Source: Escherichia coli
GTDB lineage: Bacteria > Pseudomonadota > Gammaproteobacteria > Enterobacterales > Enterobacteriaceae
Length of the DNA stretch: 40,009 nucleotides
Reading direction: 5' to 3' (one strand)
Assembly (NCBI RefSeq): GCF_003334765.1
Contig: NZ_QOWT01000036.1
The notes under the pieces are model-generated. The model saw only the letters and a list, made by a program, of their open reading frames with translations. It searched no databases and was not told where the DNA came from. Below are positions 1-28,552 of this stretch, in pieces; the first letter of the stretch is position 1; every line of letters starts with the position of its first letter. The position numbers and the translations under genes are program-made.

Positions 1-75
1 CGCGAGGCATCGTCTTAACGAGGCACCGAGGCGTCGCATTCTTCAGATGGTTCAACCCTTAAGTTAGCGCTTATG
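1..75. mobile_element. IS186-family insertion sequence, terminal fragment cut by the window edge (terminal inverted repeat at 53-75)
   Basis: 53-75 caacccttaagttagcgcttatg matches, as reverse complement, the 23-bp IS186 terminal inverted repeat as I recall it (CATAAGCGCTAACTTAAGGGTTG). It is followed at 75-87 by a G-run, 6-nt spacer, C-run (gggagtaatcccc), the kind of target IS186 prefers. K-12 carries an IS186 copy next to entD. Not verified by alignment. Confidence 0.55.
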
Positions 76-185
76 GGAGTAATCCCCGCATATCCGGTTG
101 TCAGGTCAGGATGGTAAGGCACCTGCTTTACACTTTCGCCCGTGGTCAGTGATGGCTGCGGGCGAATCGTACCAGATGTTGTCAA

Positions 186-806
186 TTAATCGTGTTGGCA
201 CAGCGTTATGACTATCTTTTCTTTTATCTGCCAGTGCACAGCAAACATCTCATTCTCACGATGAATGATGACCTGCTGTTTATTCCAGCTAATTATCTGA
301 TAGTCCAGAAAACCTGCATCAGTTTGGATCTCACTTGCCTTAAATGCGCTCTCTTTGGCGGAAAATGCCAGTGTCAGCGCCAGAGAAAAGGCTAAACCGC
401 AGTCTGCGAGTCGCTCGTGTTCCGCTGGTGTAATAATGTTGTCTGTCAATTCTCTTGCGGTTTGTACAGAAAAAATTTCTTCTATATCAATGCCAATCGG
501 TTGACGAGATACCACGGCTAATGCCGTAGTCCCACAGTGGCTAATACTGCCGTATACCTCCGCAGGCCAGACAGGTTGGCGTAGCTCGCCGATTGCGGGC
601 ACACATTTATAGCCATATTCCCGCAAAGCATAAACAGCAGCGATCCGTCCGGCTAAATGCTCTGTTTTACGTTTACGTCCAGCGTGTTGCAGTTGTGCGT
701 AGTGCGGCAGCCAGAGTAAATCCTGCTCACAAAAATTCGCCGGATCGAACTCAACAAAATGCAGCGTATGTCCGGCAAAGGGGAGGGAGGTATGCGTAGT
801 TTTCAT
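186..806 (-). CDS. entD: Enterobactin synthase 4'-phosphopantetheinyl transferase EntD (206 aa)
   Basis: Translation from MKTTHTSLPFAGHTLHFVEF to the C-terminal ITLCQHD matches EntD as I recall it. The 256-aa ORF in the track is an N-terminal over-extension; the start is taken at the internal Met. Confidence 0.93.
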   Translation of the reverse strand: MKTTHTSLPFAGHTLHFVEFDPANFCEQDLLWLPHYAQLQHAGRKRKTEHLAGRIAAVYALREYGYKCVPAIGELRQPVWPAEVYGSISHCGTTALAVVSRQPIGIDIEEIFSVQTARELTDNIITPAEHERLADCGLAFSLALTLAFSAKESAFKASEIQTDAGFLDYQIISWNKQQVIIHRENEMFAVHWQIKEKIVITLCQHD

Positions 807-980: not shown

Positions 981-3221
981 TCAGAAGTGGGTGTTTACGC
1001 TCATATACCACGTACGTCCCGGCTCGTTATAGGTATACGCCCCGGCACCGGCGATATAGTTGGCCCCTGCCAAATCGCCCGTGGTCTGGGCATTACCCGC
1101 ACGCCACAAACGTTTGTCGAACAGATTGTCCACGCCGCCGGTCAGACTGACATTCTTCGTCACATCCCAGGTCGCGCTCAGGCCAACAATGCTGTAAGGA
1201 CTAATTTCTTTGGTTTCCGGTCCAACCGCTGGCTGACCTTTATAGTTGTACTTCTTCGGCTGCTGCTTGCCGTACCAGGTGAAGGTCGTTTGCATCGACA
1301 AATCTTCCCGTGCCTGCCAGCTCAGCGTTGAGTTCAACGTATACTCCGGGATGATCGACAAACGGTCGCCCGTGGTTTTGTTTTCACTCTTCAGCATATA
1401 AGTGATGTTATTGGTCCACATCACCGTTTCGCTAACCGGTACGTTTAACGATCCTTCCAGACCTTCAACCACCGCTTTCGGCACGTTATCCCACTGATAG
1501 AGATCGGTGCCGACTGCGTTTTGCCCTACAGCCACATAGCCCGCTTCAATCTTATTGCGATAATCGTTACGGAACCAGGTGACGCCCGCCAGCCACCCGT
1601 CGCGTTTGAACTCCAGACCAATCTCTTTGTTGATGCTGGTTTCTGCTTTCAGGTCATCGTTACCTTGCAGATAGCAGCCGCCCGCGCTGGCATAGCAACC
1701 CTGACCTTTACTGTAGAGAATGTAGTTCGGGTTAGTCTGGTACAGGCTCGGCGCTTTATAAGCACGGGCGATGCCCATTTTCAGCGTGAAGTCATCGCCT
1801 AAACCTTGCGATATGTTCAGCGCCGGGCTCCAGTTATTGCCGACAATACTGTGATGATCGAAACGCAGCCCCGGCGTTACGATGGTGCTGTCAGTCAGCT
1901 CCATGTTGTTTTCGGCAAACAGCGAGAAAATTTCTGCTTTTGAATACGGGCTACGGTCGGTGGTACTCACGCCATCAATAGCGCCACCGGTATTCGTTCC
2001 GGTCAGTGCCTGGGTGTTGGAACTTAAGTCCTTCATCCGTTGCTGATTCCACTCCGTACCCAGCGTCAGCGTCTGGTTAACGAGGAAATCAATCGGCAGG
2101 TTAACTTCGCTGTGCAGCATCACGTCATCAAGATCGATATCGACGAAATCCTGTGTCGCTTTTTCGTTAAATTTCCCTTCGGTACCGCCCGCCAGACCTT
2201 CCGGAATACGCGAGTTACGGGTGTGTTCGTACTGCACCCAGTTGCTGGTGGTCACGCCGTTATCCCAGCCACCGTTCCAGGTCAGCGCGTAGTTCTGGCG
2301 ATACAGACGGTTGGTTTCATCGCCATATTTCGAGCGGGTATAGGAATCGGAGTTGGTATTCTGGGTGTCGCCCGCATACAGGTTACCCTGGCGGCTGTAA
2401 CCTGCTTCCAGTTCCAGCGATTGCAATGGCGCGAAATCCCAGCGCACCACGCCATTAATATCTTTGTTGATTACCCCTTCGCGCCCGGCTGGTAACGTCG
2501 TGGCATACGTTCCGGCACGCGCGGACTGATGGCCCTGGTTGATATCCCACGCGTCAGCCTGGGTTTTGTCGAGGTTGCCATACAAACGGAAGCTGAATTC
2601 GTCGCCCAGCGGACCGGTCAGGCTAAAGTTAGTGCGTTTGGTGGCACCTTCCTCTTTATGTTCTGGCGCATTGAAATATGCGTCCCAGGAGCCGTGCCAC
2701 TCGCCGCTGCCTTTTTTGGTAATGATGTTAACCACGCCGCCCGCCGCGCCGTTGCCATAACGCGCAGCTGCCGGACCACGCAGAACTTCAATACGTTCAA
2801 TCATTTCAGGTGGCACCCAGGAAGTATCACCACGGGTATCGCGCTCGCCACGCCAGCCCTGACGCACCGAGTTACGGCTGCTTACCGGCTTGCCGTCAAT
2901 CAAAATCAGCGTGTTTTCCGGACCCATACCGCGAATATCAATCTGTCGGTTATTCCCACGCTGACCACTGGTGGAGTTACCGGTCAGGTTAACGCCTGGC
3001 ATGGTACGGATGATCTCCGACACATCGCGGGCAACCGGGTTTTTGCGGATTTCATCTGCGGTGATGGTCGAAACGCCAGGCGCCTGTAAGTTCTGCTCGG
3101 CGGCGGTAACGACAATAGTATCGTCATGTGAAACAGGAGTATCGGTCGGCTCTTGTGCCTGCGCTACCCCATAAATCCCCAGATTGACCAACAAGGCCAG
3201 GGAATGAATCTTCTTGTTCAT
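981..3221 (-). CDS. fepA: Ferric enterobactin outer-membrane TonB-dependent receptor FepA (746 aa precursor)
   Basis: Begins MNKKIHSLALLVNLGIYGVAQAQEP (signal peptide), has the TonB-box-like DTIVVTA and ends in the C-terminal aromatic residue expected of a beta-barrel. The 766-aa ORF in the track is over-extended by 20 codons. Confidence 0.95.
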   Translation of the reverse strand: MNKKIHSLALLVNLGIYGVAQAQEPTDTPVSHDDTIVVTAAEQNLQAPGVSTITADEIRKNPVARDVSEIIRTMPGVNLTGNSTSGQRGNNRQIDIRGMGPENTLILIDGKPVSSRNSVRQGWRGERDTRGDTSWVPPEMIERIEVLRGPAAARYGNGAAGGVVNIITKKGSGEWHGSWDAYFNAPEHKEEGATKRTNFSLTGPLGDEFSFRLYGNLDKTQADAWDINQGHQSARAGTYATTLPAGREGVINKDINGVVRWDFAPLQSLELEAGYSRQGNLYAGDTQNTNSDSYTRSKYGDETNRLYRQNYALTWNGGWDNGVTTSNWVQYEHTRNSRIPEGLAGGTEGKFNEKATQDFVDIDLDDVMLHSEVNLPIDFLVNQTLTLGTEWNQQRMKDLSSNTQALTGTNTGGAIDGVSTTDRSPYSKAEIFSLFAENNMELTDSTIVTPGLRFDHHSIVGNNWSPALNISQGLGDDFTLKMGIARAYKAPSLYQTNPNYILYSKGQGCYASAGGCYLQGNDDLKAETSINKEIGLEFKRDGWLAGVTWFRNDYRNKIEAGYVAVGQNAVGTDLYQWDNVPKAVVEGLEGSLNVPVSETVMWTNNITYMLKSENKTTGDRLSIIPEYTLNSTLSWQAREDLSMQTTFTWYGKQQPKKYNYKGQPAVGPETKEISPYSIVGLSATWDVTKNVSLTGGVDNLFDKRLWRAGNAQTTGDLAGANYIAGAGAYTYNEPGRTWYMSVNTHF

Positions 3222-28345: not shown

Positions 28346-28552
28346 ACACTACTCCGGTTATATTTTTCTTCCATGATATATTCACTTAATCAATGTTTTT
28401 TGCGTATATATTTTTATTGATTATGTTTTTTGCTTAACTCAGGATTAAGTTTTTCTAAAATAGCACAGCCACTTAGGGCAGAGCGAGCAATTCATGCTTT
28501 TTTAGGATGGTTGAAAAGCAGGGATATAGTTCAACCATCCATGAATTACCTT

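Follow-up and report, generated by a model that had tools for sequence, protein, structure and literature searches.

IS186 is an insertion sequence with a highly specific target, GGGG(N6/N7)CCCC, which it enters in either orientation; it is active in E. coli K-12 in general, and MG1655 has only 19 sites of the form GGGG(N6)CCCC (Lee et al., 2016, PMC5009759). The hotspots described in that study resemble the site considered here, next to the toxin gene hokE, in that the duplication takes in the core and some of the G/C runs, either orientation is used, and the site is hit repeatedly. SaiSree et al. (2001) are cited for an IS186 hotspot with the same target motif in the E. coli B lon promoter. 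The lon, fimA, and menC sites are in promoters or coding genes, however, while the hokE site is an RNA hairpin in the 3' untranslated region of a toxin mRNA.

In the hok/sok system of plasmid R1, pairing between a fold-back inhibitory (fbi) element and the tac element at the 5' end holds the full-length mRNA in a stable form that cannot be translated before its 3' end is processed, with Sok-dependent decay by RNase III and toxicity at the membrane completing the scheme (PMC9841398). In K-12, hokA, hokC, and hokE are described as inactivated by insertion elements, a statement attributed to Pedersen & Gerdes (1999) in two later papers (PMC12214031, PMC7232551), and hok/sok loci have been flagged as insertion hotspots for mobile elements (bioRxiv 10.1101/527788). 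The nearest parallel within K-12 is IS186A at hokC (gef), which was inserted some 20 nt beyond the hok stop codon into a homologous hairpin, GGGGAGTGATCCCC, with the duplication GGAGTGATCC, and which also cuts the body of the hokC mRNA off from its fbi element and terminator. It differs from the hokE insertion in its core (AGTGAT, vs. AGTAAT at hokE), in its orientation, which is opposite relative to the hok gene, and in the neighboring gene, which is dnaJ at hokC and entD at hokE.

The DNA analyzed here (the window) is a stretch of 40,009 nt from E. coli contig NZ_QOWT01000036.1. It is 99.955% identical to MG1655 (NC_000913.3) over 40 kb, with 17 mismatches and one 1-base gap; the differences include positions 3017, 5384, 14493, 26893, 27585, and 28432, and the gap is a missing T in a T-run near 28432. 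These 17 substitutions and one gap indicate that the window comes from a close phylogroup-A relative and not from the reference strain. Many E. coli chromosomes match positions 1–400 at 100%, that of MG1655 among them, and the identity with MG1655 continues through 1–1227. The MG1655 copy between hokE and entD, IS186B, matches the window in element, site, orientation, duplication, and flanks. The first 25 kb of the window are matched at 100% by natural isolates, among them strain 2452, which has the same entD-IS186-hokE order and an extra IS150 upstream of hokE.

The IS186 end and its target site

The window begins inside the insertion sequence, reading CAACCCTTAAGTTAGCGCTTATG up to the element's end and continuing directly as GGAGTAATCCCCGC. 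The features at this end are:

1–75, + strand: right-terminal 75 bp of IS186, equivalent to the MG1655 copy annotated IS186B (transposase insL2); the body and transposase gene would lie upstream of the window
53–75, + strand: right terminal inverted repeat of IS186, 23 bp and perfect, an exact match to CAACCCTTAAGTTAGCGCTTATG
76–85, + strand: right copy of the 10-bp target-site duplication GGAGTAATCC, from the flanks and the empty-site comparison
76–89, + strand: right half of the GGGG(N6)CCCC target hairpin, the left flank ending in GGGGAGTAATCC and the right flank starting with GGAGTAATCCCC

Positions 1–75 align to IS186 at 100% identity. The repeat at 53–75 is the sole match to its sequence in the 40 kb with up to three mismatches allowed, and 100 shuffles gave none. 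In NC_000913.3, the segment corresponding to window positions 1–78 falls under the RefSeq feature “insertion sequence:IS186B” (608,007–609,351), which contains insL2 (b0582, annotated “IS186/IS421 transposase”) and extends 3 bp beyond the repeat-to-repeat element on each side. The left repeat, CATAAGCGCTAACTTAAGGGTTG, is at 1737–1759 of the MG1655 record used here (L001) and is the reverse complement of the right one; from repeat to repeat the element measures 1339 bp (1737 to 3075). This hokE-site copy is the same as IS186A near hokC over 1339 of 1339 bp, and the same as an inverted copy in another strain (L004, see below). Its 370-aa ORF scores 133.3 bits against the NCBIfam IS4-family model NF033592 (cutoff 115), and a transposase gene of this family is found directly upstream in each of the close matches inspected (MG1655, REL606, and strain 2452). 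The IS186 end sequence as such is common, occurring at some 15,000 places in 5,415 genomes. Judging from the genomes that match the window, positions 1–75 are very probably the right end of a complete IS186 of the IS4 family.

An earlier note made from the window alone had proposed an IS186-type inverted repeat at 53–75, ending 110 bp from the entD stop beside a G-run/C-run target motif, and this description holds in each part: the exact 23-mer is there, bases 76–185 separate it from the stop codon, and the GGAGTAATCCCC that follows rebuilds GGGGAGTAATCCCC when joined to the left flank. The alignment to IS186 that it suggested gives full identity over 1–75, and the upstream transposase gene and second repeat with target duplication that it called for are both present in the matching genomes.

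In K-12, the left flank of the element ends in GTGCGGGGAGTAATCC and the right one begins with GGAGTAATCCCCGCAT. Removing IS186 together with one copy of GGAGTAATCC yields GGGGAGTAATCCCC, identical to the empty site in other E. coli (L003). Since the target is palindromic, the boundary between element and duplication can be shifted by 1–2 bases. No further GGGG(N6/N7)CCCC site is found elsewhere in the 40-kb window. The simplest history would be that IS186 transposed into a preferred GGGG(N6)CCCC site, here the GGGG-AGUAAU-CCCC hairpin 21 nt past the hokE stop codon, duplicating GGAGTAATCC.

The interrupted hokE transcript

In the matching genomes, hokE lies on the + strand beyond IS186, converging on entD. 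The element starts 21 nt beyond the hokE stop codon, and the site it occupies is the conserved GGGG-AGUAAU-CCCC hairpin of the hokE mRNA. In empty-site genomes the stop codons of hokE and entD are 122 bp apart, and it is this close convergent arrangement that accounts for IS186 ending 110 bp from entD. The 50-aa ORF is annotated as HokE by RefSeq; its matches to NCBIfam Hok models have E-values of 1e-12 and 5e-10, with scores (47.7 and 38.9) below the respective cutoffs of 89 and 73. An annotated sokE is also present in NC_000913.3, and both sokE and the hokE ORF are intact. The 5' leader of hokE, in both of the hokE copies in L003 (intact loci), matches the Rfam sok family RF01794 at 86.5–87.1 bits (gathering score 59), which places the predicted 5' end of the hokE mRNA at GGGUGCCUGAAGC.

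On the window side of the insertion, the following features were assigned to the same transcript:

76–166, + strand: putative 3' untranslated tail of the hokE mRNA, cut off from the hokE body and collinear with the intact hokE loci of L003 once IS186 and one duplication are removed
117–124, + strand: candidate hokE fbi element, AGGCACCT, with predicted pairing to the mRNA 5' end GGGUGCCU (tac element)
135–166, + strand: putative stem-loop at the end of the hokE mRNA, in the interval where hokE and entD converge, from its folding energy

A reconstituted hokE mRNA was made by joining the K-12 flanks, and from its predicted 5' end to the end of the strong hairpin it is 400 nt long. In silico, its nt 1–8 (GGGUGCCU) pair with nt 353–360 (AGGCACCU, window positions 117–124) with a probability of 0.87–1.0, while for the IS-interrupted transcript the predicted pairing of the 5' end with the transcript's own last 80 nt has a probability of at most 0.02. 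Folding of the two intact hokE copies in L003 and of the reconstituted L004 locus gives the same predicted tac/fbi pairing, and hokC has its equivalent with another partner sequence. Both the fbi-tac pairing and the mRNA ends are predicted rather than mapped on transcripts.

The hairpin at 135–166 has a folding energy of −24.4 kcal/mol (z −5.2) as + strand RNA and −14.9 kcal/mol (z −2.8) as − strand RNA. It is weaker on the − strand because several of its pairs are G-U, which are found only in the + strand RNA, and this asymmetry suggests that the hairpin evolved within the hokE RNA rather than that of entD. An Rfam search of positions 1–1200 gave only REP-derived matches, located between entD and fepA; the hok 3' tail has no Rfam model because the “sok” model spans only the 5' leader.

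As reconstituted, the hokE mRNA resembles that of R1 hok/sok (PMC9841398) in its length of about 400 nt, its RF01794-type leader, its predicted 5'-3' fold-back, and its terminal hairpin. Unlike R1 hok/sok, hokE is chromosomal, has a LexA-box-like sequence upstream, and is interrupted by IS186, with the fbi element off the transcript. Taking collinearity and predicted folding together with the presence of hokE in the genomes that match the window, we consider it highly likely that positions 76–166 are a regulatory tail detached from the hokE mRNA. The insertion would have left the body of the mRNA (5' tac, sokE target, and hokE ORF) on the far side of IS186, and would have stranded the fbi element (117–124) and terminal hairpin (135–166) beside entD. 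On the accepted hok model, the stable, untranslatable reserve of mRNA cannot form without fbi, and this is how the locus is considered to have become inactive in K-12. The identity, boundaries, duplication, and target of IS186, the collinearity of the tail, the predicted pairing and its loss, and the recurrence of the insertion were obtained here; the functional inactivation of hokE is taken from the literature.

“Inactivated” may not be the same as silent. The hokE mRNA has been detected in K-12, where it is A-to-I edited (PMC12214031), and hokE is listed as an SOS-induced toxin (PMC8406316), so the term may instead mean deregulated. A perfect LexA-box-like palindrome of the form CTGT-N8-ACAG, CTGTATAAATAAACAG, is located at 1369–1384 of L001, some 30 bp before the point where the hokE mRNA is predicted to start, and fits the SOS-induced listing.

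These same points are what could be said for the insertion being neutral for hokE, in which case the locus would still be regulated and potentially toxic, and IS186 would persist in phylogroup-A-like strains by descent only: the transcript is made and edited, the gene is treated as an SOS-induced toxin with a LexA-box-like sequence upstream, and sokE and the hokE ORF are intact. Against this, the predicted fbi-tac lock is lost, independent insertions have struck the homologous hairpin of hokC and, with the element inverted, that of hokE itself, and the papers cited above (PMC12214031, PMC7232551) class the locus as inactivated. A neutral insertion is on balance unlikely, and severance of the hokE mRNA from its regulatory tail is the reading preferred here.

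The neighboring entD gene

Across the hairpin from hokE, the neighboring gene is:

186–806, − strand: entD, phosphopantetheinyl transferase, coding sequence intact (stop codon 186–188), from the ORF list and RefSeq annotation

The earlier note had looked to this gene for the consequences of the insertion, suggesting that IS186 could affect entD 3' end formation. The comparison of occupied and empty sites does not bear this out: the 110 bp adjoining entD are the same with or without IS186, and the hairpin at 135–166 sits 19 nt past the entD stop, with the element lying beyond it as viewed from entD. The transcript that is truncated is instead the convergent hokE mRNA, whose gene lies outside the window.

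A scan of positions 1–1000 for intrinsic terminator and promoter consensus sequences found none on either strand, so neither a canonical entD terminator nor an outward IS promoter can be claimed. This leaves some room for a main effect on entD, whether through 3'-end formation or through convergent transcription from the transposase gene, since insL2 reads toward entD in the K-12 orientation and, with no canonical intrinsic terminator between the two genes on either strand, read-through is conceivable both ways. Such an effect nevertheless seems improbable. Occupied and empty sites do not differ in the 110 bp beside entD, hairpin included; this hairpin folds far more stably as hokE-strand RNA than as entD-strand RNA, and entD retains an intact coding sequence. 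The junction is moreover present in 31% of complete E. coli genomes, enterobactin-proficient laboratory strains among them, and the papers searched gave no published effect of IS186 on entD.

On the other side of entD, the intergenic region before fepA (830–960) consists of REP/BIME-type palindromes, with an Rfam match to ES036 at 865–906 (− strand) above its gathering score and partial matches to naRNA4 at 911–952. Farther into the window, Rfam also identifies the rnk leader (34739–34847, − strand, 124.9 bits) upstream of rnk, and STnc70 (29433–29526, + strand, 42.7 bits) in the dsbG-ahpC intergenic region.

Recurrence across E. coli

The occupancy of the site was surveyed with junction queries made up of 100 bp of IS sequence and 200 bp of flank reaching into entD, against 5,426 complete E. 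coli genomes. A query consisting of window positions 1–400 is unable to separate occupied from empty sites, with flank making up more than 80% of it, and queries of 150 and 300 bp were used instead. For the entD-adjacent hokE site, the 300-bp queries gave:

1,676 genomes of 5,426: IS186 in the K-12 orientation
233 genomes of 5,426: IS186 in the opposite orientation
2,900 genomes of 5,426: uninterrupted hokE-entD

About 35% of complete E. coli genomes thus have IS186 at this site, from at least two independent events. The forward orientation is common to K-12, B (REL606), and strain 2452. The inverted element in strain CUVET20-416 (L004) shares this position but entered another allele of the target, with GGAGCAATCC duplicated on both sides, which marks it as an independent event. 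The suggestion that this is a hotspot is borne out, the site being occupied by IS186 in both orientations in different strains. With the 150-bp queries the counts rise to 1,727 genomes for the K-12 orientation and 410 for the inverted one, and this excess over the 300-bp counts indicates that some insertions sit in other copies of hokE. Inflation of the counts by hokC junctions was considered and rejected: the hokC tail stops matching 14 bp beyond the IS, and the 300-bp queries include entD.

The same figures dispose of the idea that positions 1–75 are a chance resemblance, or a solitary IS end without a complete element: only 75 bp of IS186 are inside the window, but no chance matches are expected for the repeat at 53–75, at least 100 bp of IS186 are joined to exactly this entD flank in 1,676 genomes, and the full 1339-bp element with its transposase gene is present in every close match inspected (the strain 2452 gene being annotated as frameshifted), leaving this explanation with next to no likelihood compared with the end of a complete IS186.

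In many of the empty-site genomes the hokE/sokE unit is present twice in tandem, at a period of about 503 bp (2191–3093 in L003; 2338–2992 in L002), and each unit has its own GGGG(N6)CCCC hairpin, fbi element, and terminal hairpin. Only one unit is found in K-12, REL606, and L004, and one-unit genomes with an empty site also exist. In JJ2434 (ST131-type), the second hokE copy is followed not by entD but by two SDR oxidoreductases and an ABC transporter permease (L002, 3102–5076), an arrangement which shows that in some lineages other DNA lies between hokE and entD. Such lineages probably account for part of the roughly 600 genomes outside all three junction classes.

Other insertions and breakpoints were seen around the locus. 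In REL606, an IS150 that is itself interrupted by IS1 lies between ybdK and hokE (13543–15446 in L005); in strain 2452 the IS150 at this position is intact (1784–3153 in L009), and it is in this strain that the frameshifted IS186 transposase gene is annotated. In the K-12 derivative XL1-Blue (NZ_CP081007.1), the junction match begins only at base 49 of the query, equivalent to window position 24, and the IS186 copy there seems to be broken or rearranged about 50 bp from its right end, which could also be an assembly artefact.

Larger changes have been reported as well. In evolved REL606 lines, a deletion designated “hokE_large” removes the fep/ent operons (PMC4557228), and an osmotically adapted MG1655 line has an 8.5-kb amplification over hokE-entD-fepA-fes-ybdZ (PMC3588905). 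The neighborhood does rearrange, then, but since the REL606 locus also has IS1 and IS150, IS186 is only a possible cause.

Implications

The IS186 at the hokE site is already known: the reference genome carries its annotation, published work explains it, and it leaves current understanding unchanged. Reading the window in isolation was right about IS186 and the hotspot, and wrong about the gene affected. The practical value is in annotation: the sequence between the insertion and entD is best labeled as the detached tail of the hokE mRNA, rather than as anonymous spacer or an entD terminator.

A more speculative reading, which we think has only a slim chance of being correct, is that the GGGG-N6-CCCC hairpin of hok genes is maintained as a “landing pad” for repeated switching-off of Hok, with the orphaned hokE tail kept to serve entD; if so, the tail might act there as, for example, a 3' stabilizer or a barrier against read-through from the IS. 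The strict GGGG(N6)CCCC preference of IS186 coincides with a hairpin that is conserved in hok genes, and the toxin family is hit repeatedly as a result, making the hokE site a textbook example of target preference meeting the hok hairpin, seen at population scale.
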